Of a stretch of 64,000 nucleotides of DNA, positions 33,517 to 63,094 are shown piece by piece (the first letter of the stretch is position 1; the number at the start of each line of letters is the position of its first letter). This DNA comes from Prolixibacteraceae bacterium (GTDB lineage: Bacteria; Bacteroidota; Bacteroidia; Bacteroidales; Prolixibacteraceae). The translations under genes and the position numbers were made by a program. The stretch covers positions 5,802,705 to 5,866,704 of the forward strand of contig OY781040.1 in NCBI GenBank assembly GCA_963676095.1, in the 5' to 3' direction. The notes beneath the pieces were generated by a model. The model was given only the letters and a program-made list of their open reading frames with translations. It was not told the origin of the DNA and ran no database searches.

Positions 33517-34061
33517 GGTTTTATTTATAAACTTTAGTTCTGTGAAAGATAGGAATATTTTTTTAGTTAATCGGTTTTGGCTGTTTAGTTTTTAGGTCCC
33601 GGCTATCAGTTACTGACTATTTGACCGTGGTTACGATTATGGAGTAACCGGAGCACATAAGTGCCGGATTAGAATTGGCAAATGACTTCCTTTACTGAAG
33701 GGACTTTCGGAAAACATTTTAGCATTTTAAGACAAAATTATTAATATAATATTCCAGAATTATTATAATAATCTTAAATAAATTATAGTAATAATTCTGA
33801 AATATTATTACCATAATTTGATGTAAAGTACGGTTAATCGTCGACGTATTAAGCATTGCTGATACAAATGCATAAACAGATGCTTAAAACAGAGACCGTC
33901 TTTTGGGGACAGCCTCTGTTAATCAGTTGCCGGACCGGTTAAGTCCGGACTTTTGTATGTTCATTAAGTTGTTATAAATTAACAAACAAATGTATTCCTG
34001 CATTTTTCCTTCACTGCACAGACGGGAAAGCTAATGCGAATACGTGCTGCACCTATCGGGA

Positions 34062-36566
34062 TCAGGGCAACATTTTGATGAAGTACCCTCCGACAACCGA
34101 CCGGGCCTGGAACCCGACTTTCTTTCCGTCTGTTGTCTCGTACCAGTCGGACATTGGTACGCGGTCCGGGGTTTCTGTTACAAAATGGTGCAGGCCTCCG
34201 ATCAGTTTTTCAAAGTCTTCCTGACTGGCAGCAAGCGTCGCCGTCCAGATTTCCCAGTCCGACTTGGTATAGGTCTTCCTGCTGTCAAGCGGTAAGCCGT
34301 ATTTGTTCAGTTTGGTCAGGTAATAGCTTATTTCCTTGCCGGCTATTTCTTTCGGGAAAATATTCAAATCCAATAGATTGTCCCATACCAGGTTGTATTT
34401 CTGGCTCCAGGTACCGGGCTGGTCGAAGGTCAGGCGGTAGTGATCGCCGTCGTTGGCCATTTTTTCCCATTCTCCGGCCATCCTTTTGGCTTCGGAAGTG
34501 TATTTTTCAGCTATGTCATTTTTTCCGAGTATCCCTGCCAGTTTCCCGTAGCAGGCAATTCCCATGATCGCCTTAACCGAGAGGTTGGTATTGTGGGCAA
34601 AGTGTCCGGCAAAGTCATCTGTACAGAGCTGGTTCTCCGGATCCAGTCCTTTTTCCAGCAGGTAATCGGCCCAGGTGCTGAGCACTTCCCAGTGCATCTC
34701 TGCGTACCGGGCATTTCCTTCAGCCCGGGCGATGGCTGCCGTCAGGATCAGCATGTTCCCGCATTCTTCTACGGGCATGTCGCCTCCGTAAGTCTGTCCG
34801 TTCGCCAGGGGATAGGTGCCCACATCATGAGCAGCAAACGGCTTGGTCCATTTTCCGCTTTCCGAGAAGTAAAAAATCGGGTTCATCATCCCTTCCAGCA
34901 ACTCCGGGTTATATTTCAGGAACAGCGGGGCTGAGGGATAAGTCACATCCACCGTCCCGATCGATCCGTTGCTAAAGTTTTCCTTAGAGAAGAACAGCGT
35001 TTCTCCCTGCGGCCCTTTTACCAGCTTATGGGCGGCAATACTTTGGCGGAAGGCCAGCACGCACAGGTCGGCATACTGTTTTCCGCCGGCCTTTACTGCT
35101 TCCGCCCACAGCCGGTTGTCGAAGGCCAGGCAGCTGTCCAGCACTATTTCCCTTTCCTGTGAGGCTAAGGTCAGGGCATTGTCCATGGTCACCTGTCCGT
35201 CTTTCTTCCACCAGGCCTGCAGGTTGTTCCCAAAGTATTGGACAGACTGGATATCGTCATAGCCCACCATCAGGTACCCTGTAGCGGTGGAGCCGACCTT
35301 TCCCAGGTTTTCGGTACAGGCCATTGCCGGCATTTCTTTAGTCATGACTGCTCTCAGATGATCTTCTCCAGCCGGAAGGGTTCCGTCTTTGGCAAAGGAC
35401 TGTTTCAGCCGGCTGTAATCGCCTATCGCCATTGCAGTACTGGCCGACTTGTCTGCTGCCAGGTAAAAGTAACCCCAGTCGATGCGAACATCGTCTCCCT
35501 TCTTCAGAAGGATTGGTTGTCCTGTCGTACCTGCTTTCAGGTAACCTATTTCCCCGGTTTCTCCCCTGCTCACTTCTACCTCTTCATCCAGCTCGTTGAC
35601 TGCCCACTGCGGGGTACCTTCAAAATAAAGCTGTACCTCGTGGCTTTTTCCATCGGCGGAGCTGACTTCATAGTTGATGTAGCTGACCGGTCTTGACAGC
35701 AGGTCGGGGTTTCCCGGCAGCAGGGGAGAGACGAAGTGAAGTGTCAGGTTTACCGGTCCGCAGGAAAACCTGTAACGCGTCTGCGTGGCCGACAGCGAGA
35801 CGCTTTTTTGTTTGGCGGTCTGTGTAAACACTTCTTTCTGGTCCGGCGTCCGGTACAGTCCGAAGTCCACATACCCGCCGCCGGTCTGGTTCTGGCAGTG
35901 TACGGCAATCAGGTTTTTTTCTCCCGGAACCAGCAGATCCCGGCTGATCTTCAGCATAACGTTGTTTTTCCATCTGTAGCCGGTATCCACCAGCTTTTCG
36001 CCGTTCAGGTACAGTTCGAATGTGTCGTCGTGGGAATATACGAGGAAGAGGTCTCCTTTCCCGGTATCCCCAGGTAGGGCAAATTCGCGTCTTACCCAGA
36101 TATCTTTGCCTGTCCAGGAGGTCGACAGGTAAGGCATCTCCGGGGTCCCGAAAGCGCCCTTCCCGGCTTTCCAGGAAGCATCTGCATAGCCTGGCTTTTC
36201 CCATCCTTTTTGAGGTTTTTGAAATGTATATTTGCCTTCCCAGAACTCATCCTTAGCCATTGGGAGGACACTCTTAAGCGGGATTTCCTCTTTCCCCAGA
36301 AAACGGAACACCTGTCCGTCCACGCGGATGGCGCCGATCAGGGGATGCACCTTTCCTGTCCAGTGACGTACCGGACTATCGTACAGGTTATCGGTTTCCG
36401 ACCAGGCGCTTGTGTACGGATCGATAGTCACTAACGGGTAAGCAGGGGCCCGTAGTTCTGTCATCTCCGGGTCCTGCCGGACAGTTTCTTTTTCCGGGGC
36501 ACAGGACGAAAAACCAATCCCTGCCAATAAAAACGCATAAATAAAATAAAATCTACTTCTCTTCAT
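34062..36566 (-). CDS. Glutaminase-A-like (DUF4965/DUF5127/DUF1793-type) secreted protein, putative glycoside hydrolase
   Basis: Lipoprotein signal (GFSSC) at the internal Met; N-terminus RAPAYPLVTIDPYTSAWSETDNLYD...IGAIRVDGQVFRFLG typical of this PUL-associated family; paralog at 52362-54854. Confidence 0.6.
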   Translation of the reverse strand: MKRSRFYFIYAFLLAGIGFSSCAPEKETVRQDPEMTELRAPAYPLVTIDPYTSAWSETDNLYDSPVRHWTGKVHPLIGAIRVDGQVFRFLGKEEIPLKSVLPMAKDEFWEGKYTFQKPQKGWEKPGYADASWKAGKGAFGTPEMPYLSTSWTGKDIWVRREFALPGDTGKGDLFLVYSHDDTFELYLNGEKLVDTGYRWKNNVMLKISRDLLVPGEKNLIAVHCQNQTGGGYVDFGLYRTPDQKEVFTQTAKQKSVSLSATQTRYRFSCGPVNLTLHFVSPLLPGNPDLLSRPVSYINYEVSSADGKSHEVQLYFEGTPQWAVNELDEEVEVSRGETGEIGYLKAGTTGQPILLKKGDDVRIDWGYFYLAADKSASTAMAIGDYSRLKQSFAKDGTLPAGEDHLRAVMTKEMPAMACTENLGKVGSTATGYLMVGYDDIQSVQYFGNNLQAWWKKDGQVTMDNALTLASQEREIVLDSCLAFDNRLWAEAVKAGGKQYADLCVLAFRQSIAAHKLVKGPQGETLFFSKENFSNGSIGTVDVTYPSAPLFLKYNPELLEGMMNPIFYFSESGKWTKPFAAHDVGTYPLANGQTYGGDMPVEECGNMLILTAAIARAEGNARYAEMHWEVLSTWADYLLEKGLDPENQLCTDDFAGHFAHNTNLSVKAIMGIACYGKLAGILGKNDIAEKYTSEAKRMAGEWEKMANDGDHYRLTFDQPGTWSQKYNLVWDNLLDLNIFPKEIAGKEISYYLTKLNKYGLPLDSRKTYTKSDWEIWTATLAASQEDFEKLIGGLHHFVTETPDRVPMSDWYETTDGKKVGFQARSVVGGYFIKMLP

Positions 36567-36651
36567 CTTTAGATAGTTGTAATTGAATAAATCTATTTCT
36601 CTGGTACTTTTTTCTAAATAGCATCGCTTTTTTGCCGGGACCGGCAATCCA

Positions 36652-37725
36652 TTATTTTTGAAGCGGGAACAGGCTTTTCTCTCCTCCCGGAATTTTTATT
36701 TCCTCCCCGCCGGGGACAGGAGTCCCAAAATCAGGGGTGCCATCTGCATTCCATGTAAAACGCTGCATCCGCACATCCCGTTTCCAACCTGGTTCCGTTC
36801 CTTTTTTTGAATGATAAACGATCCAGTCCTCTTTACCGTCAGGCGATTTGACAAACGAACAATGACCGACTCCAAGGACTTTGTCGGTCCCCATAAAGAC
36901 AGGTCCTTTTTTGATCCAGCTGGATGGGGCGAGCAAATCGGCATCCGGGGCCTTTAGTTGCAGCATTCCCAGACGGTAATCCGCCAGCCAGGATTCACGG
37001 CACGAATAAATGAGAAACAGCTGGTCTTCATGTTCCAGAAATTCAGGGCCTTCGTTCAGGTTGAGCGGGCCGCCTGTTTCCCAGCTTTCATCCGGGGAAG
37101 AAAGCAATACCCTTTTCCCTTTCAGTGTCCACGGGTTTGTCATTTCCTGAATGTAGAGTTGCTGGGGGGTGGCATCTGTGTCCATTTGCTTTTTCCATCC
37201 TGACCAGACCGCATACAATTTTCCCCTGTATTTGATAACCGTCATATCAATTGCCCAGATATTGTCAGACTGGTCCTCCGGATGATCTCCTGTGTACAAC
37301 ATGCCCATATCTTCGTAATCACTGAATACGTCATCCGTTTTGGAACGGAGTACGCCTGCCCGTTGGTGAATAAAAGGAGGTCCGGATATGCCCGCAGCAT
37401 AATAGACGTACCATCGCCCGTCAATAAAATGGATCTCCGGCGCCCATATGCAGGAGCGGTTCCATCCTGTTTCCGGGGCTTTCCAGATTTCTTTCTGCTC
37501 TCCTTTCCGGATCATCGATTCCGACCGGGAGACCATAATCCCGTTGTTTGCCGAAAAACAATAAATATATTCGTGACCGTGCTTCACCATCCATGGATCT
37601 GCCCCGTCCCAGACCGGGTTAGCAAACGTCTCCTTCATTTGCTGGGCACTGACCGGTATTGTTCCGATACAGGCAATAAATACCAGCGTAGCTGCTACGC
37701 GCCACGGAAGCTTTATGATCTTCAT
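36652..37725 (-). CDS. GH43-family-like beta-propeller glycoside hydrolase
   Basis: 357 aa; signal peptide; NPVWDGADPWMV (catalytic-Asp block), IWAPEIHFIDGRWYVYYAAG and WSGW blocks. Confidence 0.55.
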   Translation of the reverse strand: MKIIKLPWRVAATLVFIACIGTIPVSAQQMKETFANPVWDGADPWMVKHGHEYIYCFSANNGIMVSRSESMIRKGEQKEIWKAPETGWNRSCIWAPEIHFIDGRWYVYYAAGISGPPFIHQRAGVLRSKTDDVFSDYEDMGMLYTGDHPEDQSDNIWAIDMTVIKYRGKLYAVWSGWKKQMDTDATPQQLYIQEMTNPWTLKGKRVLLSSPDESWETGGPLNLNEGPEFLEHEDQLFLIYSCRESWLADYRLGMLQLKAPDADLLAPSSWIKKGPVFMGTDKVLGVGHCSFVKSPDGKEDWIVYHSKKGTEPGWKRDVRMQRFTWNADGTPDFGTPVPGGEEIKIPGGEKSLFPLQK

Positions 37726-37849
37726 CTTTTTCTTTCTTTAGTACTTAATAATCACCTTGCTGTCTGTATAAACGGTTACCGTTGTTCTGCCGGGAAGAGA
37801 GATCTATTCTGATCAGGCAATCTTTCAACGGATTAAGCCGTGTCTTTTG

Positions 37850-37950
37850 AAGCTGTTTACAGGGGTAATGCCCCACAAACAGGCGCAGCCCTTAAACTTT
37901 TCAAACACGGAGATCAAACAGCCTCAGGTTATCAAACGGCGAAGCCTCAA
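37850..37950. repeat. Degenerate copy of the caaac-rich intergenic repeat (module 1)
   Basis: ccacaaacaggcgcagcccttaaacttttcaaacacggagatcaaacagcctcaggttatcaaacggcgaagcctcaaac shares the tcaaacggcgaagcctcaaac core with copies at 40.3, 40.6 and 41.9 kb. Confidence 0.6.
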
Positions 37951-37953
37951 ACA

Positions 37954-40056
37954 TCAATTCTTACTCCATGGTATTGCGCTGACCCTCAGTCTGGCTGCCC
38001 CCATGGGGATCAGTTCTACCTCCACTACCGGCTGGTCCGTCATTACCGGGCTGTCGGGCAGCTCGCCGCAAAGTCCGTACTGGTCCAGTTCCCATTGGGG
38101 AACCTGCCTGGCCTTTGCCTTGAGCACCAGCGGTACATTGTCTGAGGTGAACGGATAATCAGATTTTGGCCAGGCCTTCTTTTCCAGACGGAAAGACAGT
38201 GCAGGATCTTTTTCATCCAGCACCAGGGCGTAGTTCCAGGCCGATCCGGGGAGAATATTCCAGGAGGGCCACTTCGACCGGTCTACTCCCGCCTGCCACT
38301 TCGAGTCGCCGATAGCTGTCTGATCGCTTTCTTTTTTTACATAGTTTTCTTTGATTTTCAGGGAGAATGTCAGCGGACCATAGTTTACGCTCACGCAGTT
38401 ATGGTTTTTAGCCCAATGCTGTACGCTGACTTTCATCGGCAGTTTCAGTGTAATGCGATCGCCGTTTTTCCATTTCCGTTCCAGCAGGACGATCTTTCCT
38501 GCTGCCGGGGCTACCGCCACCGCCTTTCCGTTTATCTCGAGTGAAGCCTGGCCGCACCATTCCGGGATGCGCAGGTATAACGGGAATGTTACAGGCTTTT
38601 TCATCGACAGGCTGATTTGTACTGCCTCTTCAAAAGGATACCGGGTTGTTTCCTGCAGGGTTACCTCCGAGCCGTTTCCTACCATGATCTTTGTCTCACA
38701 GGCAGCATACAGGGCCGCGAAAGCCCCGTTATCAGGAGTAGCCATCCACAGGTTTTCGGCATAGTAAGGCCAGCCCTGTCCGTGGTTATGCTGGCAGCAG
38801 CGGCTGCTGAACGGGTTCATCATAAAGAAAGGGCCTGAGTTCATGATGCCGGGACTGTGGTCCCGGTCGTCACAGACGACCATATTAGGAGCGGTAAAAT
38901 AACGCAAAGCTTTCATGTCGGCAGTGAGCGCTGCGGGGTACATGTTGAATGCCACATTCTCGGCATGATCGGCCCAGAACGGATTGCCCGAGATGCGGAG
39001 CATCTGCTCGTCCGAATTCATCTCTTCAACCAGTCCACAGGTTTCGATGCCCTGGTGCGGATCGTCATATCCCGGACGGGCCACTTCGTCGGCGCCGAAC
39101 ATTCCGCCCGGGACCTGACCGAAATGTTCCCTGATAATATTGAAAACATCGTAGGAAGCGTGCAGGTCGGCAGAGTCTTTCGACAACAGAAAATATTCAG
39201 CCGGTTCCCGGAAGCTCTGGGCCACGTTCACATTGTGCCAGTCGGGAAGCAGGTCGTACCACGAAGGATTGTTCTGACGCGGGTGGCTCCCCGACTTGTG
39301 CGGATTATTACGGGATTCCCAGCTTGGCATGCAGCGATGGATTTTCTTTGCCAGGTCCATCAGAAAGTCATCGCCGGTCCTGTTATACAGCCAGAATACG
39401 CTGTACAGGTTATCGCCGCCCCGCAGGCCTTCCCAGTAACCCTTCATAAAATCCGTATCCGGGATGCTTAGCTGGTATTTAAAGAAGTTGGTCATCAGGT
39501 CAAGCACCCGCTGATCGCGAGCGTATTCGTAGTACGACTGAAGGCAGTAGAGCATGACCATATTGCCCCAGAAATTCCGTCTGCCATCCTCGTAATGCGT
39601 TGGACCAAAGTCGCCATTTGGGCGTTGACTGTTCAGGGCCCCTTCGATCCATACTTTAGCCTCGGCGATCATCCGCGGATCTTTCAGGATATAAGCCAGG
39701 TCGCCGTAACCTTTCAACCAGTATGGAACTTCTTCCCAGCCCCAGGCGCCATCGCCTGTTTTGGAAAGCCATGCATTGTCCTTTTTCTGTAGCCAGGCGC
39801 TGATCTCTCCCAGATGACCGTTCAGTCCGTCCCGCTGACGGAGCAGGCATTCCCGCAGCCAGCCACGGGGAGTGACAGCGCCCACCGGCAGTTTTATGAA
39901 CATTCCCTGTTTCAGGGGCGGCCGGTTCCCTTTATAAAAGGAATTCCGGACAGTTGTATCCGGGCGGTCGACAACTGCAACCCATGTTCGTTCCTGATCA
40001 GCCCGTAAATGATCAAATGACAAAATGATTAGTAATAAAAAAAGTAGTTTTCTCAT
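37954..40056 (-). CDS. GH127-family (DUF1680) beta-L-arabinofuranosidase-like glycoside hydrolase
   Basis: 700 aa secreted; ETCGLVEEM and SRCCQHNHGQGWPYY blocks match the Glu/Cys and Cys-Cys zinc and nucleophile ligands described for HypBA1-type GH127 enzymes. Confidence 0.6.
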   Translation of the reverse strand: MRKLLFLLLIILSFDHLRADQERTWVAVVDRPDTTVRNSFYKGNRPPLKQGMFIKLPVGAVTPRGWLRECLLRQRDGLNGHLGEISAWLQKKDNAWLSKTGDGAWGWEEVPYWLKGYGDLAYILKDPRMIAEAKVWIEGALNSQRPNGDFGPTHYEDGRRNFWGNMVMLYCLQSYYEYARDQRVLDLMTNFFKYQLSIPDTDFMKGYWEGLRGGDNLYSVFWLYNRTGDDFLMDLAKKIHRCMPSWESRNNPHKSGSHPRQNNPSWYDLLPDWHNVNVAQSFREPAEYFLLSKDSADLHASYDVFNIIREHFGQVPGGMFGADEVARPGYDDPHQGIETCGLVEEMNSDEQMLRISGNPFWADHAENVAFNMYPAALTADMKALRYFTAPNMVVCDDRDHSPGIMNSGPFFMMNPFSSRCCQHNHGQGWPYYAENLWMATPDNGAFAALYAACETKIMVGNGSEVTLQETTRYPFEEAVQISLSMKKPVTFPLYLRIPEWCGQASLEINGKAVAVAPAAGKIVLLERKWKNGDRITLKLPMKVSVQHWAKNHNCVSVNYGPLTFSLKIKENYVKKESDQTAIGDSKWQAGVDRSKWPSWNILPGSAWNYALVLDEKDPALSFRLEKKAWPKSDYPFTSDNVPLVLKAKARQVPQWELDQYGLCGELPDSPVMTDQPVVEVELIPMGAARLRVSAIPWSKN

Positions 40057-40234
40057 GGTTAACAGGTACTAATTGGTTTAGATCCTTAAAATTAGTATTT
40101 ACTTTCGTTTCTTCTATTTCTGTAATAATATTATTACCACCAACATCTCTCAATTACTCATTCCTTGTTTAATTTTTTTTTAGACATTTAAATCAGAATC
40201 ACTCGTGATAATTAAATTAACAACAACACAACAA

Positions 40235-40510
40235 AAGCCCTTTTATAAAAGCAACAACCTTGGGGGCCCGGACCGGGCAACGCCCCTCAAACGGCCGCAG
40301 GCCATCAAACTCCTCAAACGGCGAAGCCTCAAACCTTCTTAAACGGGCGAAGCCCCTTCTATTCCGCCCGAAAGAAGCAATCTGTTCTGATCAACCGTTT
40401 CCCGCGGGCGGGAGGCAATGGTCCGGATCCGCTTCTTACCCGGGGTGCCGCTCCTGACGTCGCTTACCCCGGGCTACCAAAACATGACCCCTCCGGGGCC
40501 AGGGGTGAAA
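40235..40510. repeat. Composite intergenic repeat, copy A (module 1 then module 2)
   Basis: Module 1 (40235-40366) has three caaacgg motifs; module 2 (40352-40504) is GC-rich with duplicated cttaccccggg. Matches copies B and C at about 90% identity. Confidence 0.8.
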
Positions 40511-40580
40511 CCGGTATCGTCATTATTTTAAAACACATTATCAAAATCATTCCTATTAATTAAATTAATAATGACCATCC

Positions 40581-40705
40581 AAAGCCCTTTTATAAGACCA
40601 CCACCCTTGGGAGCCCGGAACGGGCAACGCCCCTCAAACGGCCGCAGGCCATCAAACTCCTCAAACGGCGAAGCCTCAAACCTTCTCAAACGGGCGAAGC
40701 CCCTG
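40581..40705. repeat. Intergenic repeat copy B (module 1 only)
   Basis: Near-identical to 40235-40366, including the flanking aaagcccttttataa. Confidence 0.8.
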
Positions 40706-40711
40706 TCCCTT

Positions 40712-41698
40712 TTACCACTCGATAGCCTGATCTTCATCAGGTATCTGTGTATTGATTTTACGTTCCAGGATTATTGATCCTCTTACCGTGTAAGCGATGG
40801 TAGCGCCTGTAGAGGAAGTATAATCCGTGTAATTGTAATCGATATTGCTAATGGTTACGTAGCGGTGCTTCAGATAGGGGCGGGTAGCGTCCATCGTCTC
40901 TTCCACTGCAAACATGGGGGTGCTGTTCACCTTGAATTCGATATTGGGATCTTCCGCCGTAAGGGTTACGATTTTTGTTTCCTCATCAAATGAAGCGGAG
41001 ATCTTATAGCTGCGACGGTCTGTGTTTTCTTCGTCCACTGTTCCGGCATAGAAGAACACCGTGTTTTCGTCCACCACGTAAACAGGGATCTCGCTCTCGA
41101 CAATTGCTGCGTCACTCTCATAACCTTTCAGATAAACCTTCAGTGCCGTACCGCTGTACGTTCCCGAGTAGTCGTTGAAAGGCATTATACGGAGCAGTGC
41201 TTTCCGGTAGTTTTTGCGGGGGTTCGCCACGTAGTCGTACGAAGGATCGTCCACAATCGTCAGGGGAAGCACCCATTTGTCCACTAAATCGATCCCTCCC
41301 AGCGTGAGATCAATGTCCAGCAAAGATGTGTTTTCTCCTGCCCGGATGTTTACTGTGTCGGACATCGTGAAATACCTGCTGTCCAGTTCCTGATAATAAA
41401 GTTCCTCACGGCTTTGGAACCGTTCGTCGTTCAGTGTTTGCAAGGTATCGGGGTCTACCGCCACGTGGACGGTCATATCCCTGTCGTTTGTGGTCGACCC
41501 GCTGACGATCAGGGGGAGCTGGTAGGTTACTTCTCCTTCGGATTTGTACCGTACGTAGATTGGCGTCACCCCGTTGTCGTCGAGCGGGGCTTTAAAAGAG
41601 ACGTAATGCACGTATTGTTCGTCTTTCCATTCGTCGTTGCATGCGCTGAACACCACCAGCACACTCAGTAAAAATGGCAAAAAATATCTTTTTTTCAT
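40712..41698 (-). CDS. SusE/SusF-like PUL-associated surface lipoprotein (DUF4973/DUF4361-like)
   Basis: 328 aa; lipoprotein signal (VVFSACNDE); beta-rich with no catalytic motifs; located directly downstream of SusD, as SusE/F-type accessory lipoproteins are. Confidence 0.4.
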   Translation of the reverse strand: MKKRYFLPFLLSVLVVFSACNDEWKDEQYVHYVSFKAPLDDNGVTPIYVRYKSEGEVTYQLPLIVSGSTTNDRDMTVHVAVDPDTLQTLNDERFQSREELYYQELDSRYFTMSDTVNIRAGENTSLLDIDLTLGGIDLVDKWVLPLTIVDDPSYDYVANPRKNYRKALLRIMPFNDYSGTYSGTALKVYLKGYESDAAIVESEIPVYVVDENTVFFYAGTVDEENTDRRSYKISASFDEETKIVTLTAEDPNIEFKVNSTPMFAVEETMDATRPYLKHRYVTISNIDYNYTDYTSSTGATIAYTVRGSIILERKINTQIPDEDQAIEW

Positions 41699-41758
41699 TT
41701 ATTTTTCAATTTAATCATGTAAGTAATTATTTGTTTATTATATCAACCCTCGCCGCCG

Positions 41759-41985
41759 TTCCGCCCGGGGAAGATGATCTGTACTGATCAATGTTTTCCC
41801 GCGGACGGGAGGCAATGATCCGGGTCCGCTTCTTACCCGGGGTGCCGCTCCTGACGTCGCTTACCCCGGGCTACCAAAACATGACCCCTCCGGGGCCAGG
41901 GACAACGCCCCTCAAACGGCCGCAGGCCATCAAACCCTTCAAATACGAGGCCTCAAACCTTCTCAAACGGGCAACGACCCTCCTT
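41759..41985. repeat. Composite intergenic repeat, copy C (module 2 then module 1)
   Basis: Module 2 (41759-41891) then module 1 (41891-41980), the reverse of the order in copy A. Confidence 0.8.
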
Positions 41986-41987
41986 CA

Positions 41988-44033
41988 TCAATCATTATAC
42001 GTCCATCCCGGGTTTTGCGTCAGCCGGTTGTTGCTCTTCAGCTCGTCGTGTTTGATGGGCCAGAACCACATCTTGCGGGAGAATGTCGATTGGAGTGCCC
42101 ATGCAGCTACCGGCGTATGGAACAGGTCTTTTTGCGCGGAAGTCATCAACGTGTTGCATCCGTAGATTGTCAGCGCTTCTTCCACCGGAGCGTCTTTCCA
42201 GCGGCGCAGGTCGTAGTACCGCTGACCTTCGCCCATGAGTTCGATTTGCCGTTCGCGTTTTAACTTTTTTCGGAACTCATCCCGGTCGCCATATACATCA
42301 GCTGTATAATCTGGCACACCGGCCCGGATACGGACAGGGCGAATGCCTTTCTTCATTTCGTCGATGTTGCGGCTGATAGTGTAAGTCTGCGTGCCATCCC
42401 AGGACTGGATGTTGTAAGAGCCTTCCAGTTCGTTCAATGCTTCCGCATAGATCAGCAGGATGTCGGCATAACGGATAGCCGGTTCGGTTTTGTCTTCCAC
42501 GTTGCCGATTTCTCCGTTTTCGTAGGTGTCTTTCGGGTGTACGAATTTCATGACGCCGATGCCGGTACGGAGCCAGAACATGGTGTTGGTATAGCCGTTA
42601 CCGTCCCCGCGGTAATAAAAAACCTGTTGCTCCCGGTTTGCTTCCTCCGATTCGTTTTCCAAATGCCAGACACTGCCGTTGTAAGCCACCGAGGCATAAA
42701 AGCGGGGTGAGCGGTTGGCATATTGCAGCGAGACGCCTGCTGCCAGCGGTTTGTACCTGCCGGCCTCCACATCTTCCGCTGTCACATAGCCTGTCAGTCG
42801 GTCGCTGCCGTCGCCGCGCCCGATCTCCTTGTCCTTACCCGGGCAGTCTGTGCCATCGTTCATGTAGTAGGCGTCGCATTGTTTTAGTGTCAGCCCGTGC
42901 GTATTCCAGCCCGAAGCAATACGCGGCAACTGGTGCGCCACCATGGCAGCAATACTTTCCCCGCCGTTATTTCCGCGCGTGAAGATCAGTTCCGGGTTTT
43001 CCGATGCATTCAGGGTACCGTTAAATACCGCGCGGTACGATTCGAACGGGTCGATGTCCGCCCAGCCGTCCGGCCAGTTGCTATTGGAAAATTCACTGTC
43101 ATACGGGGGAACGATCGTGGCCGGGTAGGAAGAAGTGCCCGATGTGCGGAAATTGGCCACATACAACTGATAGATCCCGAGCTCCATCACGTCCCTGGCA
43201 GCAGCGGCTGCCCTGGCCCATTTTTCTTCATCATAGTCGGAAGACAACAATTGCTTTCCCTCATCGTCGACCAGCTCTTTGGCGTAATTATCGGTATTCC
43301 CGTTCGCCAGCGGACTGGCGGCGTAAAGCAACACTTTTGCGCGGGCGGCCAGTGCCGCACCGCGGGTTGGCCGGGCAACGGATTGTTCATCGCGGTTTAG
43401 CTGCAGATCTTTTGCCGCAAGCACCATTTCGTTGCTGATGTATTCCGCACATTCTTCATAGGTACTGCGGGGAGTGGCTATGTCGTCGTAGCTCTCCGTA
43501 TAATCGATACCTTCCTCGGGAAGCAACGGGATTGGGCCATACTTGCGCAACAACAGCCAGTAGTAATAGGCCCTAACAAAGCGGGCCTGTGCTTTGTAGT
43601 CTGCTATTTTCTCAGCGGTCATTTCCTGGTTTATGTCAATATTCTGGATGAAAACGGTGGCATTACGGATCCCTTTGTAGCATTGTGTCCAGGTGTCCTG
43701 CTTGTCATCCTCGGTGTATTCCCCCATATGGAACTCATTGTATGACAAGGCCGATTCGTTGCTAACGTCATAATCGCCGTCACGGTCGCCATAGTACATA
43801 TCGTCTGCAAAGCAATGCGGCGTATAGCCCTTGCTGCATACGTCGGCACATTCGTTTGTCAGAAAGGAGTAGGTGTGGGCCAGCCACTCTTCCGAGTACT
43901 CTTTGCTCTCAAACACTTTTTCCTCGGTCATCCGGTCATCGAAATACTGATCGGCATCCAGGTAATCCGAACAGGAGGAAAGGATCCCTGTTCCCAGTAC
44001 CGTTAATATTAGAATATATATTTTCTGTATCAT
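41988..44033 (-). CDS. SusD/RagB-family nutrient-binding lipoprotein (long form, 681 aa)
   Basis: Lipoprotein signal (ILSSCSDYLD); SusD-like body; directly downstream of SusC (12-bp gap). Confidence 0.8.
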   Translation of the reverse strand: MIQKIYILILTVLGTGILSSCSDYLDADQYFDDRMTEEKVFESKEYSEEWLAHTYSFLTNECADVCSKGYTPHCFADDMYYGDRDGDYDVSNESALSYNEFHMGEYTEDDKQDTWTQCYKGIRNATVFIQNIDINQEMTAEKIADYKAQARFVRAYYYWLLLRKYGPIPLLPEEGIDYTESYDDIATPRSTYEECAEYISNEMVLAAKDLQLNRDEQSVARPTRGAALAARAKVLLYAASPLANGNTDNYAKELVDDEGKQLLSSDYDEEKWARAAAAARDVMELGIYQLYVANFRTSGTSSYPATIVPPYDSEFSNSNWPDGWADIDPFESYRAVFNGTLNASENPELIFTRGNNGGESIAAMVAHQLPRIASGWNTHGLTLKQCDAYYMNDGTDCPGKDKEIGRGDGSDRLTGYVTAEDVEAGRYKPLAAGVSLQYANRSPRFYASVAYNGSVWHLENESEEANREQQVFYYRGDGNGYTNTMFWLRTGIGVMKFVHPKDTYENGEIGNVEDKTEPAIRYADILLIYAEALNELEGSYNIQSWDGTQTYTISRNIDEMKKGIRPVRIRAGVPDYTADVYGDRDEFRKKLKRERQIELMGEGQRYYDLRRWKDAPVEEALTIYGCNTLMTSAQKDLFHTPVAAWALQSTFSRKMWFWPIKHDELKSNNRLTQNPGWTYND

Positions 44034-44045
44034 CTCGTTTTTAGT

Positions 44046-47000
44046 TTATAAGTTAACGCTTACTCCCAATGTGATTGATTTTGCGGGGGGGTACTCTTCT
44101 CCCCGGGGGTCGCCCATTTCGGGGTCCCAGAGTTTAAAACCCGACCAGGTCACCAGGTTGGTACCGACCAGTGATACGCGTATATTATTTATGTGTAGAT
44201 TGTTTACAATTCTTTTGGGTAGGGTGTACCCGATATCGACCGTTTTCAGCCGGACATACCGTCCGTTGCGCAGCCAAAAAGTAGAATTGCGGTAGTTGTT
44301 GGCATTTCCTCCATAGCTCAGCCTCGGATAAGCTGCGTTCGGGTTCTCCGTGGCGGGATCGCCTGAAATATCAGCGGAAATCCAACGATCTGAACCGACC
44401 AGGCCTTTCAGTATATTTCCCCATTCCCCTTCACTGAAGGCGTATACACATTTTCCATAGATCGGAAAAGTCGATTTGCCGGCACCCTGGAAATGCACGT
44501 TCACGTCCAGTCCTTTCCATTGGAAAGAACTGCCCACGCCATAAGTCAGGTTGGGTGTCGTGGTTGCCCCGATAGCAACAATGTCGCCGTCGTCTATTAC
44601 CCCGTCGCCATTGACATCCTTATATTTGATGTCTCCCGGCTGGTAGTCGCCAAAGTTTTGCGTTGGACTGTTACGGATGTCGTCGTAATCCTTAAACAGT
44701 CCAAGGGCAATCAATCCTTTGCTTTGGTTTACCCGGTAGCCCTCTTCCATTTGATAAGCGTAAACATTGTTTTGTTCGTCCTTTTCCAGTACCGTGTTCT
44801 TGCTGTAGGTGATGGTGCCGCGGACCGTCAGGTCGACGCTTCCCACTTTCCGTTTGTAATCGAAACGTCCGTCGAACCCTTTTGAACGGACAGCCCCTAC
44901 ATTGGCGCTGGGATTGCTTTCCAGCCCTACTATTTCCGGTAAATAATCACGTTCCATATAGATTCCCGTGCGTTTTTCGTTAAAGTAGTCCACATTAGCC
45001 GAGAATTTGTCATTGAAAAGCGACAAATCGATACCGAGGTCGTTTTTTGTGGCTACCTCCCAGGTGACATTCGGGGAAGCGACCTGGGAGTAATACAGGC
45101 CGCTGTAAGATTTGTTATTTCCATACTCGGCCCATTGGTAGCCGTCTCCGGACGATATGGCAGAAAGGTAAGGGAAGCGGTTATCATCCCCCAGGTTGTC
45201 GTTACCTACTTTACCATGGGAATAGCGGATCTTGAACAAGTTCATCCACCTGACATTTTTCTTGATAATTTTTTCTTCAGAGAGGTTCCATGCCATGGAG
45301 TAGGCCGGGAAGAACCCGAACCGGTGTCCGGAAGCAAAATTTTCCGAACCGGTGTAGCCAAAATTAAAATCCGCAAAATAGCGATAGTTCCAGTTGTAGG
45401 TTACTTGTCCTGCCAGTCCCTGGTTGCGTTTTGGGGCCCCATTTTTGAGATCGCTGCCCAGGTTTTGTGTTTGTATGTAAGCATCCTGCGTGTATTTGAG
45501 CGTTCCTCCGAAATGGTGGTCTTTAACGCTGTGGTCGTAATTGAACATCAGGTCGAGAAACTCCCGGCGGTCGCCGTCCGAGCCGCTTGTCTGGGTCATT
45601 TCCTGTGCCGCGGATATTTGGGTGAATACCAGTTCCCCTTCGCTGTTACGCGCACGTTCCGCCTTCCACTGTTCTGGCCATTTTATACGGTTGATATAGT
45701 TGCTGTTGTTCGTGTCGTAACCGAAATGCCCTACAAAGCGGAGCCCTTTCAGGATGAAGTCAAAGTTCTGCTCCAGGGAAACATTGGTTTGTATTTTATT
45801 TTCCCAGGTTTCGTCGAATCCGGTTTGCGTGGCGGCTACCCAGGGGTTTGTTTTGTTTCCCGTCCCGTAGGCAGGCACATAGCCATTGGAATACGTGATC
45901 GGCGTGAGGATCGGCGTGTATCCGAAAAGTTCGCCCCAGAGATCGTCTCCGCTTTCCAGGCCCGGCGTGTTCTGTTTGGACAGCGAACCGGAAAGGCCTA
46001 CTTTCAGTATCGTACTTTTCGTGATGTTGATATCGGTGTTCATGCGGTAGTTCCACCGCCTGTAGTTGACATTGGTGTCGTACTCATCCTGCACGGCCTT
46101 GTCTGTTTTGTACATCCCCTGTTCTTCCACATAGCTGGCAGAAACAAAATAACGTGCAGTAGCGCCACCCCCGCTCATATTCAGATTGGCACGATAGCTC
46201 ATGGCGCCATCCCGCAGCACGACGTCCTGCCAGTTTATATTGGGGTAAAGGTCAGGGTCGAGTCCCAACCGCAGGATTTCCAGCTCTTCGGGTTGATAGA
46301 TCGGTTCCTCGTTGCGGGTGATACGCGCTTCGTTCAGCAGGTTGGCATACGTGTAGCCATCCACAAATTCAGGAGTGATGGTCCGGGTATTATATGTAGT
46401 CTCGACCTTGGCATCGATATTGATTTTGCCTGCTTTACCATGTTTGGTGGTGATCAATATGACACCATTGGCGCCTTTAGCTCCATAAATGGCCGTGGCT
46501 GAAGCATCCTTGAGTACAGAGAACGATTCAATATCCTCGATGTTCAGGTCGTTCAGGTCGCGTTCGAAGCCATCTACCAGCACGTAAGCCTCACTACCGG
46601 CCCCAAAGGTTGAAATACCGCGGATCCAGAATTCGGAAACGTTTTTACCGGGCTGTCCTGAGGTCTGCATGGCTATGATCCCTGACACATTCCCTGCCAG
46701 CGTATTCGAGATGCTCGACGAAGGATTTGACTTCAGTTCGTCTATGTCCACCGTCGTGATGGCACCGGTCACCGTCTGTTTCTTCCGGACCCCCGTACCG
46801 GTAACGACTACCTCGTCCAGGGCGTTGGCTTTCGATTCTTTCATTTTAACGTTGATCCGGAGCTGGTCTTTCACCAGTATTTCCTGTTTGTCGTACCCGA
46901 TGTATGAGAAAATCAGTTTATGATAGGGTTCCATCTTAATCCGGTAATTTCCGTCCCGGTCGGTAACCGTACCCAAGCCGGGTACGTCGCTTACAATAAT

Positions 47001-47201
47001 GTTGACACCGACCAGCGGTTCATTTTTAGTGTCGGTTACAACACCGGTCACGACAATTGTCTCCTGTGCAATGGCATTTGCAGAAAATCCGAGCAAAAGG
47101 ACACATGCCAGTAGAAAATTCACTGTGCGCAACATATTTATGCCTGGAAGAGCCTTAACTAAATTTGGTCTTTGCCCTCGCTTAATCGTATTTTTTTTCA
47201 T
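44046..47201 (-). CDS. SusC/RagA-family TonB-dependent transporter (no STN domain)
   Basis: Carboxypeptidase-regulatory-like domain (VTGVVTDTKNEPLVGVNIIVSDVPG); plug and barrel. The more likely start is the internal Met at 47135. Confidence 0.9.
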   Translation of the reverse strand: MKKNTIKRGQRPNLVKALPGINMLRTVNFLLACVLLLGFSANAIAQETIVVTGVVTDTKNEPLVGVNIIVSDVPGLGTVTDRDGNYRIKMEPYHKLIFSYIGYDKQEILVKDQLRINVKMKESKANALDEVVVTGTGVRKKQTVTGAITTVDIDELKSNPSSSISNTLAGNVSGIIAMQTSGQPGKNVSEFWIRGISTFGAGSEAYVLVDGFERDLNDLNIEDIESFSVLKDASATAIYGAKGANGVILITTKHGKAGKINIDAKVETTYNTRTITPEFVDGYTYANLLNEARITRNEEPIYQPEELEILRLGLDPDLYPNINWQDVVLRDGAMSYRANLNMSGGGATARYFVSASYVEEQGMYKTDKAVQDEYDTNVNYRRWNYRMNTDINITKSTILKVGLSGSLSKQNTPGLESGDDLWGELFGYTPILTPITYSNGYVPAYGTGNKTNPWVAATQTGFDETWENKIQTNVSLEQNFDFILKGLRFVGHFGYDTNNSNYINRIKWPEQWKAERARNSEGELVFTQISAAQEMTQTSGSDGDRREFLDLMFNYDHSVKDHHFGGTLKYTQDAYIQTQNLGSDLKNGAPKRNQGLAGQVTYNWNYRYFADFNFGYTGSENFASGHRFGFFPAYSMAWNLSEEKIIKKNVRWMNLFKIRYSHGKVGNDNLGDDNRFPYLSAISSGDGYQWAEYGNNKSYSGLYYSQVASPNVTWEVATKNDLGIDLSLFNDKFSANVDYFNEKRTGIYMERDYLPEIVGLESNPSANVGAVRSKGFDGRFDYKRKVGSVDLTVRGTITYSKNTVLEKDEQNNVYAYQMEEGYRVNQSKGLIALGLFKDYDDIRNSPTQNFGDYQPGDIKYKDVNGDGVIDDGDIVAIGATTTPNLTYGVGSSFQWKGLDVNVHFQGAGKSTFPIYGKCVYAFSEGEWGNILKGLVGSDRWISADISGDPATENPNAAYPRLSYGGNANNYRNSTFWLRNGRYVRLKTVDIGYTLPKRIVNNLHINNIRVSLVGTNLVTWSGFKLWDPEMGDPRGEEYPPAKSITLGVSVNL

Positions 47202-49181: not shown

Positions 49182-49601
49182 ATGGATAATCAGGACATAC
49201 GATGGCAGCAACGTTTTAGTAACTATAAAAAAGCGCTGAACCAGCTCGAAAATGCAATAAACCTTGCAGGGGAAAGGAACCTGTCTGATATCGAACGGCA
49301 AGGACTGCTTAAAGCTTTTGAATTCACCCATGAACTTGCATGGAATGTAATGAAAGATTTTTTTGAATATCAGGGAAATGTTTCCATTAAAGGTTCCAGG
49401 GATGCAATTCGGGAAGCTTTTGCAACCGGTCTGATCGAAGATGGCGACGTTTGGATGGATACGATAAAAAGCAGGGTACAGACCGTTCATGCGTACGATG
49501 AAAGTACCGCTGATGAGATAGCCAGTAAAGTCGTTGAACAGTATTTTTTAATTTTTGTCGATTTTAAACGCAAAATGGAAAGTTTACTAGAAAAAATTTA
49601 A
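49182..49601 (+). CDS. HEPN-domain protein, HI0074-family nucleotidyltransferase substrate-binding protein (toxin-like partner)
   Basis: 139 aa; N-terminus DIRWQQRFSNYKKALNQLENAI is the HI0074/TIGR01987 signature. Confidence 0.7.
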   Translation: MDNQDIRWQQRFSNYKKALNQLENAINLAGERNLSDIERQGLLKAFEFTHELAWNVMKDFFEYQGNVSIKGSRDAIREAFATGLIEDGDVWMDTIKSRVQTVHAYDESTADEIASKVVEQYFLIFVDFKRKMESLLEKI

Positions 49602-49603
49602 GA

Positions 49604-49915
49604 ATGAAATACGGATTAAAAGAACAGGACATTAAAGCTATTCAAACCGTGTTTGAGAAATACCCGACCATAGATGAGGCCATTTTGTATGGTTCACGGG
49701 CAAAAGGTAATTACCGGAAAGGCTCCGATGTAGACCTCACATTGCGGGGTCGTGGTTTAGATTTGACTACTTTGCTAAAAATTGAAAATCAGCTTGACGA
49801 CCTTCTGCTACCGTATAAAATTGATCTTTCCATTTTTCACAAAATTGAAAATCCTGATTTAATTGACCATATCAACCGCATTGGAATAACTTTTTACCGT
49901 ATAAGAAATATCTAA
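49604..49915 (+). CDS. Minimal nucleotidyltransferase (MNT, HI0073-type antitoxin-like partner)
   Basis: 103 aa; nucleotidyltransferase motif (LYGSRAKGNYRKGSDVDL); starts 2 bp after the HEPN stop. Confidence 0.75.
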   Translation: MKYGLKEQDIKAIQTVFEKYPTIDEAILYGSRAKGNYRKGSDVDLTLRGRGLDLTTLLKIENQLDDLLLPYKIDLSIFHKIENPDLIDHINRIGITFYRIRNI

Positions 49916-49946: not shown

Positions 49947-51065
49947 ATGAAACTAACATCCAGCTATTTATGCGTTTGTCTGTTAATTGCATTTTTTATG
50001 ATTTCGTGCAACAGTAAGCGACCGTCACAACAACCTGTGACCGACGTACAGGTCAAAACCTATACCAATCCTTTATTGCCCACAGGAGCCCGTCCATGGG
50101 CAACATTTTACAAGGGTAATTATTACTACTTTCAGGATGCCGACGACCGGATTTGTATGTGGAAAACTCCGGATCTGACCGATCTGAGGGATGCCCCAAA
50201 AAAAGAGATCTGGGTTCCCCGCGATAAAAGCAATGCCTTCCACATCTGGGCCTCCGAAATGTATCACATTGACAATAAATGGTATGTTTACTTTGCGGCT
50301 GACGACGGGAATACTGATAACCATCAGATTTACGTGATCGAAAACAGTTCTGCGGATCCGTTTGAAGGAAAATTTACCATGAAAGGACGCATAAAAACGG
50401 ATAAAAAGAACAGTTGGGGAATTCATGCCAGTTTATTTCAGCATAAAAATGACTGGTATATGATCTGGTCGGGATGGCAAACCAGACGGGTAGAAGCTGA
50501 GACACAATGTATTTATATTGCCAGGATGAAAAATCCATGGACGTTGGCATCGGAAAGGGTCCTTATTTCCAAACCTGAGTATGAATGGGAACGTCAATGG
50601 ATCAACCCTGACGGTAGCAAAACGGGCTATCCCATCTACGTCAATGAAGATCCCCAGTGCTTTTATACGAAAGACAAAAGTAAAATCCTTATTTATTATT
50701 CAGCCAGCGGGACCTGGACCCCCTATTATGCGGTAGGTATGTTGTCGGCAGACATAAATGCCGATCTGCTCAATCCCGCATCGTGGCAAAAGTCGGACAA
50801 GCCTGTGTTTAAGCAAAATCCGGATAACCAGGTTTTCGCAACGGGGACCCCTTGTTTTATTCCTTCACCGGACCAGAAGGAGATTTACTTTCTTTACCAG
50901 GCCCGGCCTACCGAAAAGGAACCCTATGGCTCATTGCCTTCCAAAGAAACGGATACCCGGTCGCCCCGGTTACAGAAAATGGAGTGGGACGATAAGGGAT
51001 TTCCTTATTTTGGGGAAGCGCTATCGGAGATTGAAAAAATAGCCAGGCCGTCCGGAAGCCGTTGA
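49947..51065 (+). CDS. GH43-family-like glycoside hydrolase (paralog of 36652-37725)
   Basis: 372 aa; lipoprotein signal; YTNPLLPTGARPW, IWASEMYHIDNKWYVYFAAD and IWSGW blocks parallel the other GH43-like gene. Confidence 0.55.
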   Translation: MKLTSSYLCVCLLIAFFMISCNSKRPSQQPVTDVQVKTYTNPLLPTGARPWATFYKGNYYYFQDADDRICMWKTPDLTDLRDAPKKEIWVPRDKSNAFHIWASEMYHIDNKWYVYFAADDGNTDNHQIYVIENSSADPFEGKFTMKGRIKTDKKNSWGIHASLFQHKNDWYMIWSGWQTRRVEAETQCIYIARMKNPWTLASERVLISKPEYEWERQWINPDGSKTGYPIYVNEDPQCFYTKDKSKILIYYSASGTWTPYYAVGMLSADINADLLNPASWQKSDKPVFKQNPDNQVFATGTPCFIPSPDQKEIYFLYQARPTEKEPYGSLPSKETDTRSPRLQKMEWDDKGFPYFGEALSEIEKIARPSGSR

Positions 51066-51196
51066 AAAGTCGTTAAAAATGACGATTTGACCAGATATTC
51101 CTGTTTTTTGAACAGTTATTTCAATCACAAGGAGATTCTTCATCTATTTTTATGCCCCTTTAACACAGTGCAAAAAGAGAAATAAATCAAGATGCA

Positions 51197-52360: not shown

Positions 52361-52361
52361 A

Positions 52362-55543: not shown

Positions 55544-55614
55544 TCAATATAGAATTTCTGTATGAATTAAGAATTAATTCTGACGAGACTCTTTCAGAAA
55601 TGTCATCAAAAACC

Positions 55615-55725
55615 TTATTTTTCTACGTTTTCCCCAACGTAGTCCTTTGGCAAAACGCCAAAGCGGGCTTTGAAACATTTGGCGAAATAGGATGAAGGGC
55701 AGAACACGGTTGGGCTACAAATTTC
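55615..55725 (-). pseudogene. 3'-terminal remnant of an AraC-family HTH regulator gene
   Basis: The minus-strand frame reads EICSPTVFCPSSYFAKCFKARFGVLPKDYVGENVEK-stop, matching the AraC C-terminal consensus (SYFsKvFKk.FG.tP.eY); only about 37 codons, bounded upstream by a stop. Confidence 0.5.
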
Positions 55726-55950
55726 CTACCCCTCATTGTTCGCAAAAGATAATTAAGAGCAAATTTTCTTTATTTAACTCGTATTTTGACCTGTTATTAT
55801 TGTTTTTTGACCAGAATTTCCCGTTCCGTCTGATTTTAGATTCCGACCTTCGAATTGCAAATAAATATGGAGGGAAATTTACCGAGCTTTATTCTGGAAA
55901 CGGATAAAGCATAAAGAACATTTATTTAATACAAATCATAAATCGCCGAA

Positions 55951-56649: not shown

Positions 56650-56654
56650 ATACC

Positions 56655-57422: not shown

Positions 57423-57730
57423 TCAATTATACAGAAAGAGAAATTCCCTGCACCCGGATTATTGAGCATAAACATTTTGAGTTTGGGAACCAACCCAAAA
57501 CGATTATAACAAGGGAATATCCTCAATCCTGGAGACCTGGTTCAGAACCTTACTATCCGGTCAATACGGAGAAGAACAATTCGATTTACAAGAAATATAA
57601 GGAGTTAGCAGTAAAAGAAAGGAATATTTATTTTGGCGGACGTTTAGGTTTCTACAAATATTATAATATGGACCAAGTGGTAGAAGCAGCTTTGGAGCTA
57701 TACAATCATATTACAATATCAGATAGTTAA
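57422..57730 (+). pseudogene. 3' fragment (about 100 codons) of a UDP-galactopyranose mutase gene
   Basis: About 95% nucleotide identity to 60227-60526 (INYTEREIP...GGRLG.YKYYNMDQVV), with no start codon and no upstream part. It is joined to the cassette end through the shared pentamer taatc. Confidence 0.8.
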
Positions 57731-61977: not shown

Positions 61978-62054
61978 ATATTGAATGAATTATTGATACC
62001 GCTTTTTTCTGGAAAAGAGGCCTCCTGATTAACATCCGTACACATTCAAAAACC

Positions 62055-63089: not shown

Positions 63090-63094
63090 ATGTC

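Follow-up and report, generated by a model that had tools for sequence, protein, structure and literature searches.

We analyzed a 64,000-nt stretch from the genome of a Prolixibacteraceae bacterium (contig OY781040.1, positions 5,802,705 to 5,866,704; "the window"), which contains a polysaccharide utilization locus (PUL) with repeats in the spacers between its genes. The genes of this PUL are co-directional and on the minus strand, and by their Pfam matches they encode a TIG-domain protein, SusC, SusD, a DUF4973 lipoprotein, GH127, GH43, and a GtaA-like protein. A reading of the sequence alone (the sequence-only reading) had placed four copies of a repeat in the spacers of this operon, and we recovered all four by repeat finding and by self-BLAST. 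The repeats are made of two modules. M1 is an array of GUUUGA hexamers and mini-hairpins, as read on the mRNA strand, and M2 is a unit of about 140 nt with three hairpins. The arrays lie in the sense orientation and next to stop codons, the modules are present in some relatives and absent from others, and the pairs of M2 are conserved on the sense strand. The modules are dispersed, mosaic, non-coding repeats, akin to the bacterial interspersed mosaic elements (BIMEs) and to BOX elements, and we think it probable, judging from sequence comparisons, that they are transcribed along with the PUL and act in cis as RNA stem-loops at the boundaries between cistrons.

The M1 copies at 40229-40357 and 40576-40704 (copies A and B) are 93% identical over 129 nt, and the copy at 41900-41984 (copy C) is 86-88% identical to both of them. 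The M2 copies at 40362-40504 and 41759-41901 are 91-94% identical. The other M1 copy in the PUL (copy D, 37863-37952) is strongly diverged (66% identity over a 44-nt core), yet it retains one exact 21-mer, TCAAACGGCGAAGCCTCAAAC. Also, the flanks are not all unrelated, as had been stated: the AT-rich DNA next to copy A (40192-40228) recurs next to copy B (40540-40575) over about 40 nt with 71% identity, so the A/B pair looks like a 347-bp tandem duplication or the result of gene conversion. The repeats cannot be due to chance, as 17 of the 38 TCAAAC hexamers in the window are concentrated in the four M1/M2 stretches, which are just 0.71% of its length (binomial P = 7e-27).

Along the direction of transcription, M1 comes before M2 in spacers C and D. 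The spacer between the lipoprotein and GH127 reads M1 (copy B), an AT-rich stretch, M2, and M1 (copy A). The modularity that had been described is real. A fifth and degenerate copy of M1 (copy E, 16160-16245) lies between two plus-strand genes and has the opposite orientation from the copies at 38-42 kb. M2 is present in the window as two copies and one remnant, all within the one PUL.

To compare the spacers across relatives, we used orthologs of the window PUL that were found by searching with the lipoprotein. L030 (lipoprotein 84% identical) has the same gene order as the window, with M2 after SusD; M1, an AT-rich stretch, M2, and a decayed M1 after the lipoprotein; and a short M1 after GH127. 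In L022 and L023 (85%), the SusD-lipoprotein and GH127-GtaA spacers are 1.3-1.6 kb and are filled by M1, M2, and two additional modules, M3 and M4. Relatives without the insertions, which the sequence-only reading had envisaged, also exist: L024, L025, and L026-L029 (78-89%) are module-free and have an ordinary terminator-like hairpin after the lipoprotein. The empty orthologous spacers are 19-190 bp (for SusD-lipoprotein in L024, 19 bp).

The lipoprotein-GH127 spacer is 119 bp in L022 and L023, where one hairpin and GTTTGAG are left, vs. 655 bp in the window. These short and long alleles (L022 vs. the window), the only such pair, have TGAG microhomology at both junctions, which fits deletion as well as insertion. 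M1, M3, and M4 are also present in a non-PUL spacer of L022 and L023, between genes for a Kinase-PPPase and an MFS protein. Through recombination between 285-bp direct repeats of the modules, this spacer is about 1 kb longer in one of the two genomes than in the other. L022 has an extra copy of M2 on the opposite strand at the far end of the locus (20891-20987), outside of the PUL.

M4 is a repeat of about 550 nt that travels with M1 and M2, as does M3 (L022:9030-9590 and 13590-14130; L023:18724-18940 and others). M3 and M4 in the related genomes had no match in Rfam. Separately, some relatives that lack M1 and M2 have (GGAGACC)n-like, purine-rich short tandem repeats at or near the same stop-proximal positions (L026:8657-8700 and 9850-9900; L028:9943-9975 and 11120-11160).

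These results bear on whether the repeats might be just a local segmental duplication, or real genes for small proteins or small RNAs (sRNAs) on the plus strand. In favor of a local duplication, copies A and B do form a tandem unit of 347 bp, but modules are found in another operon of the window and in both PUL and non-PUL loci of relatives, so the family did not arise by local duplication. As for genes, open reading frames (ORFs) of 65-124 amino acids are indeed open on the plus strand, as the sequence-only reading described. However, their frames are not preserved between copies, and a 69-amino-acid translation from the module-covering part of the 124-amino-acid ORF had no homolog among 5.8 billion proteins. 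The frames are open because the TCAAAC strand is stop-free in every frame, and the same artefact is seen in L005 and L008. There was no Rfam match at the gathering score in the window or in eight of the loci, and allowing E ≤ 5 across 37700-42100 gave only two chance-level matches. Our data contradict both explanations, and we find them scarcely credible. The two outcomes that the sequence-only reading had named as its refutation, an element confined to this site and coding potential in the embedded ORFs, were not seen.

Aligned copies of M1 read, from the stop codon on the mRNA: GGGGCUUCGCCC – GUUUGAG – AAG – GUUUGAG – GCUUCGCC – GUUUGAGG – A – GUUUGAU – GGCCUGCGGCC – GUUUGAG – GGGCGUUGCCC. 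The periodic motif that had been noticed on the plus strand (TCAAACGG) is present, but on the mRNA strand it is better read as units of GUUUGA and a mini-hairpin. Between one hexamer and the next there are either 2-4 nt or a GC mini-hairpin, which has a stem of 3-4 bp and a loop of three bases. In 207 intervals between hexamers (taken from the window and ten loci), the dominant core of the mini-hairpin is GCUUCGC (GCUGCGC and GCUACGC also occur), and the spacing is irregular, with 8, 9, 10, and 13-16 nt being the most common. The hexamers are far better conserved than the spacers between them.

The arrays are tied to stop codons. In the window, the first mini-hairpin is 3-20 nt and the first hexamer is 1-28 nt past the stop codons of SusD, the lipoprotein, GH127, and the plus-strand ORF that ends at 16140 (for this last ORF, which precedes copy E, 19 nt and 28 nt). 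In the window, L022, L023, and L030 together, 23 of 23 arrays are in the sense orientation (GUUUGA on the mRNA strand), and the distance between the stop codon and the first array of a spacer is 1-57 nt, exceeding 31 nt in only one spacer. Within the window, the orientation of the arrays flips with the gene strand (16 kb vs. 38-42 kb), so it tracks transcription and not replication; for this reason we rejected replication-oriented signals (Chi- or KOPS-like). Past the stop codon of the upstream gene, two or all three frames of the sense strand are closed by a further stop within about 60 nt, and none of the three stays open beyond 120 nt. Because UUUGAG can form G-U pairs with itself, M1 also folds far more stably as the sense strand (-52.7 kcal/mol) than as the antisense strand (-31.2 kcal/mol).

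On the antisense strand, the mini-hairpins of M1 read GCGAAGC or GCGCAGC, which is the d(GCGNAGC) motif, a DNA mini-hairpin of exceptional stability. This motif occurs 12 times on the plus strand of the window and its complement once, and six of the 12 are in M1.

It is conceivable that the GUUUGA arrays are binding sites, either on the mRNA for a protein of the RRM (RNA recognition motif) or cold-shock type, or for a DNA-binding protein. This would fit with the conservation of the hexamer relative to the spacers and with G/U-rich, single-stranded repeats being on the mRNA strand only, and global RRM proteins do act on PUL expression in Bacteroides (PMC11697453). However, the putative partner protein has no known candidate, and the irregular spacing argues against helically phased DNA-binding sites, which we rejected. 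The RNAs that are associated with one such protein, RbpB, are the FopS family, and these are multicopy, PUL-associated, independent sRNA genes with their own promoter and terminator (PMC11697453). Our modules resemble FopS in being a multicopy RNA family linked to PULs in Bacteroidota, but FopS is in Rfam and our modules have no match there. We consider binding sites to be quite improbable.

For M2, the consensus that we derived from 11 copies (window, L022, L023, and L030) has three hairpins (a, b, and c) and 35 pairs, 6 of which show compensatory changes. Cells are paired in 95.3% of cases vs. 91.6% in column shuffles (0 of 500 shuffles reached the observed value) and at most 57% if the partners are slid, but these controls for covariation are only suggestive, as the sample is small and closely related. 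Pairing is better on the sense strand (324 of 340 cells, vs. 302 of 340 for antisense), and 28 cells are G-U. In hairpin b of L030, pairing survives both a change from G-C to U-A and a change from G-C to G-U. M2 copy C is 89% identical to the other M2 copy of the window but only 72% identical to its L030 ortholog, which indicates concerted evolution.

Hairpin b (GUAG-CCCGGGGUAAGCG…CACCCCGGGUAAG) is a bulged palindrome with a tag at its foot. It has an 8-bp stem (CCCGGGGU/ACCCCGGG) and an inner stem and loop, is conserved across the 11 copies, and is a short imperfect palindrome in the range of 20-40 bp. Going by its sequence, hairpin b has the layout of a GTAG-tagged repetitive extragenic palindrome (REP). 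The GTAG tag is present in both copies in the window, in both copies in L030, in the metagenomic locus L016, and in the soil contigs L009, L012, and L017; in L010 it is ATAG. Hairpin a of the window copies is terminator-like (UGGCCCCGGAGGGGUCA and then UGUUUUGG), and the U-run is lacking in L022 and L023. The modules and the neighboring genes are listed in Table 1.

Table 1. Repeat modules and genes in the window. Coordinates are relative to the first nucleotide of the window, and R1 is a covariance model of M2.
Feature	Coordinates	Strand	Remarks
SusC	44046-47201	-	Pfam
SusD-family gene	41988-44033	-	Pfam; native stop codon abuts copy C
M1 copy C	41900-41987	-	GUUUGA/mini-hairpin array directly after SusD stop (41988-41990); first hexamer 19 nt past stop
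M2 copy C	41758-41899	-	Hairpin a 41882-41898; GTAG and hairpin b 41832-41874; hairpin c 41761-41809; R1 140 bits
DUF4973 / BT_3044-like surface lipoprotein gene	40712-41698	-	Pfam
M1 copy B	40576-40711	-	Directly after lipoprotein stop (40712-40714); mini-hairpins 40692-40703, 40666-40677, 40640-40650, 40622-40633
AT-rich flank of copy B	40540-40575	-	71% identical to 40192-40228; part of the 347-bp A/B tandem unit
M2 copy A	40361-40502	-	Hairpin a 40485-40501; GTAG and hairpin b 40435-40477; hairpin c 40364-40412; R1 126 bits
M1 copy A	40229-40360	-	Preceded by M2, not by a stop codon
AT-rich flank of copy A	40192-40228	-	Shared with flank of copy B
GH127 beta-L-arabinofuranosidase gene	37954-40056	-	Pfam
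M1 copy D	37863-37953	-	Diverged; first GUUUGA 1 nt past GH127 stop; orthologous to the array after GH127 in L022 and L030
M2 hairpin c remnant, degenerate	37779-37831	-	Downstream of copy D, in GH127-GH43 spacer
GH43	36652-37725	-	Pfam
GtaA-like	34062-36647	-	Pfam
M1 copy E, degenerate	16160-16245	+	GTTTGA on plus strand; upstream of GH92 (16370-18568)
Module 3 (M3), hairpin-rich	16245-16320	+	89.6% identical to copies after M1 in L022 and L023

Other genomes also carry the arrays. The 21-mer that copy D retains is present in seven contigs from metagenome-assembled genomes (MAGs) of Prolixibacteraceae/Bacteroidales, and these contigs hold 21 further arrays. (An eighth match, in an Ignavibacteriaceae contig, is inside a coding region and probably due to chance.) The layout in the MAGs is a stop codon, a GTTTGA array within 0-31 nt, often an inverted TCAAAC array, and then the next gene; the sole exception is in a divergent spacer (L007 607-814). 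The foldback pair of [GTTTGA]n and [TCAAAC]n folds far above shuffles (z = -4.5).

The arrays that are within genes of the MAGs are exclusively in the stop-free TCAAAC orientation. AcrB-family (RND) ORFs in L001, L006, and L008 run through one or two in-frame arrays (L001:2121-2272 and 3146-3291; L006:3283-3351; L008:1550-1627 and 2519-2594), which split the ACR_tran match from Pfam and add peptide segments that are rich in S, N, G, E, and A (for example, SSNPQNISNGEASNPQTAQPSNSAASNISNGEATNRAAPNGEASG). The second insertion site of L001 and L008 is lacking in L006. A protein search with a translated insert found nothing significant, probably owing to its low complexity. In L001, we also observed a gene for a 23S rRNA intervening-sequence protein (PF05635) with foldback [GTTTGA]n/[TCAAAC]n pairs on both sides, in a cassette-like arrangement (929-1109, 1151-1543, and 1553-1686).

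For M2, scanning metagenomes for the two arms of hairpin b yielded one site in a contig with 40% GC and another four to six, all distinct, in GC-rich contigs from soil. These elements (L009, L010, L012-L014, L016, and L017) have hairpin a, a (G/A)UAG tag, hairpin b (CCCGGGGUAAGCG…ACCCCGGGUAAG), and hairpin c; hairpins a and c are at the same positions as in M2 but have different sequences. As the loci were retrieved by hairpin b itself, its conservation is by construction, but the flanking architecture is not. The covariance model R1, which was built from the Prolixibacteraceae copies, matches the soil and metagenome elements along their full length (L016, 57 bits; L009, 45; L010, 39; L012, 34). 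The family itself is confined to a sub-lineage of Prolixibacteraceae-like Bacteroidota. There was no sign of a phage or plasmid origin: the unit GTTTGANGCTTCGCNGTTTGA had 0 matches in viral contigs, and M1+M2 had no match in collections of plasmids and phages.

The sequence-only reading had suggested an element like a REP or a MITE (miniature inverted-repeat transposable element). In a general sense, the modules are REP-like and dispersed: they occur in another operon of the window and in other genomes, they are polymorphic for presence or absence, and hairpin b has the layout of GTAG plus a palindrome. The foldback pairs in the MAGs, with their strong hairpins, might also suggest a classical MITE or another non-autonomous transposon that is moved by a DDE transposase or by a REP-associated tyrosine transposase (RAYT). 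However, no terminal inverted repeats, and no clear target-site duplications, bound the composites in the window, and the M2 copies are single and co-oriented, unlike the inverted pairs of REPs known as REPINs. No tyrosine transposase (Y1/RAYT) was found among 20 scanned ORFs of the window (including those at 49-62 kb) or among the genes called in L022-L030, and the only transposase in the window is of the unrelated DDE type. A classical transposon is distinctly unlikely, in our view.

Several other identities were considered and set aside. A promoter search for the Bacteroidetes motif TTTG-N17-23-TAnnTTTG gave no site in the spacers and a chance-level count across the window, and a sigma-70-like scan was also at chance. 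The modules do not look like a set of regular terminators, as hairpin a alone is terminator-like, in the window copies only and without conservation, and the M1 hairpins are just 3-4 bp. A single large and specific fold of M1 was rejected because its z-scores are not significant. Integron attC-like sites were considered due to the stop adjacency and strand specificity, but inspection by eye showed no fit between GTTTGA/TCAAAC and the core sites (GTTRRRY/RYYYAAC).

The modules were gained by insertion and have been reshuffled by recombination, gene conversion, and deletion between copies. We propose that they are transcribed within the polycistronic mRNA of the PUL and most probably act in cis as RNA. 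Stem-loops at cistron boundaries may impede 3'-to-5' exonucleases and so protect the upstream messages. Also, stop-proximal stem-loops might be melted by the terminating ribosome, which covers about 15 nt, a span in which the modules would lie, and this could modulate termination or processing. Liang, Rudd, and Deutscher are said to have reported this situation in 2015 for stop-proximal REPs in E. coli. The outcome could be to set the relative amounts of the SusC, SusD, and lipoprotein messages vs. the downstream enzyme messages, as REPs and BIMEs do in operons of E. coli. For how the modules spread, we can offer only leads: M1 might do so by slippage or recombination, and M2 with the help of a RAYT-type enzyme.

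The main alternative is that the repeats are selfish or neutral DNA with no function in cis, and that their placement just shows where the genome tolerates insertions. With stops in every reading frame, GTTTGA arrays would be tolerated only after genes, TCAAAC arrays are stop-free and can survive within genes, and the AT-rich leaders for translation initiation must stay intact. In-frame colonization of AcrB genes is typical of selfish palindromic DNA (PMC3733652), and recombination between copies yields large indels. Some of our other results weigh against a function as well. Copies have decayed (copy D in the window, copy A in L030) or been partly deleted in relatives, and the decay fits with weak or no selection. 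Many related genomes have no modules, and neither do two other PULs of the window in which we looked for them; the PUL under study itself ends with an ordinary terminator-like hairpin and a U-run and no module. Thus, the modules are not a general requirement of PUL operons. When the transcribed RNA is folded, as the sequence-only reading had suggested, M1 has no excess stability over dinucleotide shuffles (z = -0.5, -2.1, +0.15, and -1.0 for four copies), and the whole 291-nt composite is not significant either (z = -0.7). Finally, the tag position reads ATAA in 7 of 7 copies of M2 from L022 and L023.

On the other side, neutral insertions would be expected in both intergenic orientations, yet every array of the window, L022, L023, and L030 is sense, with the first one hugging the stop codon. 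Neutrality also does not predict that the helices of M2 would be kept through compensatory and G-U changes, or that orthologous copies would persist where the neighboring lipoprotein is only about 84-85% identical in its protein sequence. Neutral or selfish DNA explains the decay and the patchy distribution, but it explains the uniform orientation and the compensatory changes less well. We regard it as possible but rather unlikely, and we prefer cis-acting stem-loops at cistron boundaries.

The kind of element is known, as interspersed mosaic hairpin repeats include REPs and BIMEs, BOX, BrickBuilt, and the mycobacterial interspersed repetitive units (MIRUs), but this family was not described in the literature that we searched. 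BIMEs are mosaics of REPs with other motifs. Like REPs and BIMEs, our modules are short, GC-rich, imperfect palindromes in the extragenic DNA of operons, mostly downstream of genes and often touching the stop codon; they form mosaics of variable order with other conserved motifs; their G-U pairing points to a role as RNA; and copies are occasionally intragenic. Hairpin b has GTAG at the foot of a bulged stem, as in the REPs of E. coli. According to a survey of REPs (PMC3733652), most of them are located 3' of coding regions, they can provide a stop codon, their G-T pairs are suggestive of an RNA function, and some are intragenic. However, GTAG REPs were not reported from Bacteroidetes in the survey of Di Nocera et al. 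2013 (PMC3733652). Hairpin b also differs in being embedded in a fixed three-hairpin unit, in occurring singly and not as inverted dimers, and in having lost its tag in L022 and L023, and the hexamer and mini-hairpin arrays of M1 have no counterpart among REPs and BIMEs.

The BOX elements of Streptococcus pneumoniae are modular (boxA-boxB(n)-boxC), with a fixed A-B-C polarity. They are similar to our repeats in being intergenic and modular, with sub-units of variable number and order and stable folds that are predicted within transcripts, but they are not tied to stop codons, they have no hexamers, and both their sequence and their phylum are unrelated. The MIRUs of Mycobacterium tuberculosis are units of 46-101 bp with small ORFs that overlap the neighboring stop and start codons. 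Our repeats are also tandem units in the intercistronic spacers of operons, all oriented with transcription, but they have no such coupling ORF. The arrays that are in frame inside AcrB-family genes of L001, L006, and L008 are reminiscent of the Rickettsia palindromic elements, which were reportedly described by Ogata et al. in 2000. They are also like intragenic REPs (PMC3733652), but we saw these inserts in other genomes only and not in the window, and the inserted DNA is a hexamer array instead of one palindrome. The BrickBuilt MITE of Porphyromonas gingivalis has 23-nt units and small inverted-repeat ends, lies 49-591 nt from coding sequences, and has promoter activity (PMC4596501). It is from the same phylum as our family, and both have a short tandem unit with flanking modules, are intergenic, and are found in one lineage. 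However, BrickBuilt units have no hairpin spacers, and our elements have no inverted ends and abut stop codons in one orientation. The unusual traits of this family are the arrays of hexamers and mini-hairpins, the strict adjacency to stop codons, the in-frame colonization of AcrB, and the sharing of a REP-like hairpin between these Bacteroidota and distant soil bacteria.

A more speculative idea, which we consider doubtful, is that M1 and M2 together form a new, strand-specific "cistron-boundary cassette." M1 would be a stop-proximal signal that a dedicated RNA-binding protein binds or that the ribosome senses at termination. M2 would be either a structured RNA under conservation or a substrate for a single-strand transposase, and the arrays could be exapted as linkers in AcrB. 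If this idea were true, then the near-identity of hairpin b to elements from GC-rich bacteria in soil, which seem to belong to other phyla, would mean that hairpin b has spread horizontally or has an ancient, conserved recognition partner.

We also note some other features of the window. Downstream of the last gene of the PUL, there is an AT-rich, nearly perfect palindrome of 86 nt (33735-33819), and the terminator-like hairpin with its U-run is at about 33890-33925. A second GtaA-like gene (52299-54854) is on the opposite strand, with 72% identity at the DNA level between 34068-35090 and 53814-54836; it adjoins GH43 and GH76 genes (49947-52360) that diverge from the PUL. Two neighboring genes at 49182-49915, which encode a nucleotidyltransferase substrate-binding protein and a Pol-beta-type nucleotidyltransferase, resemble a toxin-antitoxin pair of the MNT/HEPN type. 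Farther along, there is a 1.8-kb duplication (55606-57424 vs. 62046-63864, 95% identity) and a 283-bp duplication (57420-57702 vs. 60225-60507, 97.5%). The duplicated copies at 55-64 kb include ORFs of 255 amino acids with no Pfam match, and they bracket genes for UDP-galactopyranose mutase (59426-60526) and an IS4-like DDE transposase (60603-61874).

Interspersed hairpin repeats are well studied in Proteobacteria and in a few Firmicutes, but hardly in Bacteroidota, whose PUL operons dominate carbohydrate ecology. The modules also have practical effects: they lead to spurious annotated ORFs (in the window, L005, L008, and L022), to spacers of up to 1.6 kb, to indels by recombination, and to in-frame inserts in efflux pumps. 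The near-identity of hairpin b to elements from distant soil bacteria is an unexplained lead on REP-like biology outside of the Proteobacteria. And if it is true that the modules set the ratios between the messages for SusC/SusD, the surface glycan-binding protein, and the enzymes, then PUL regulation would include a layer that is specific to this lineage and evolves rapidly.

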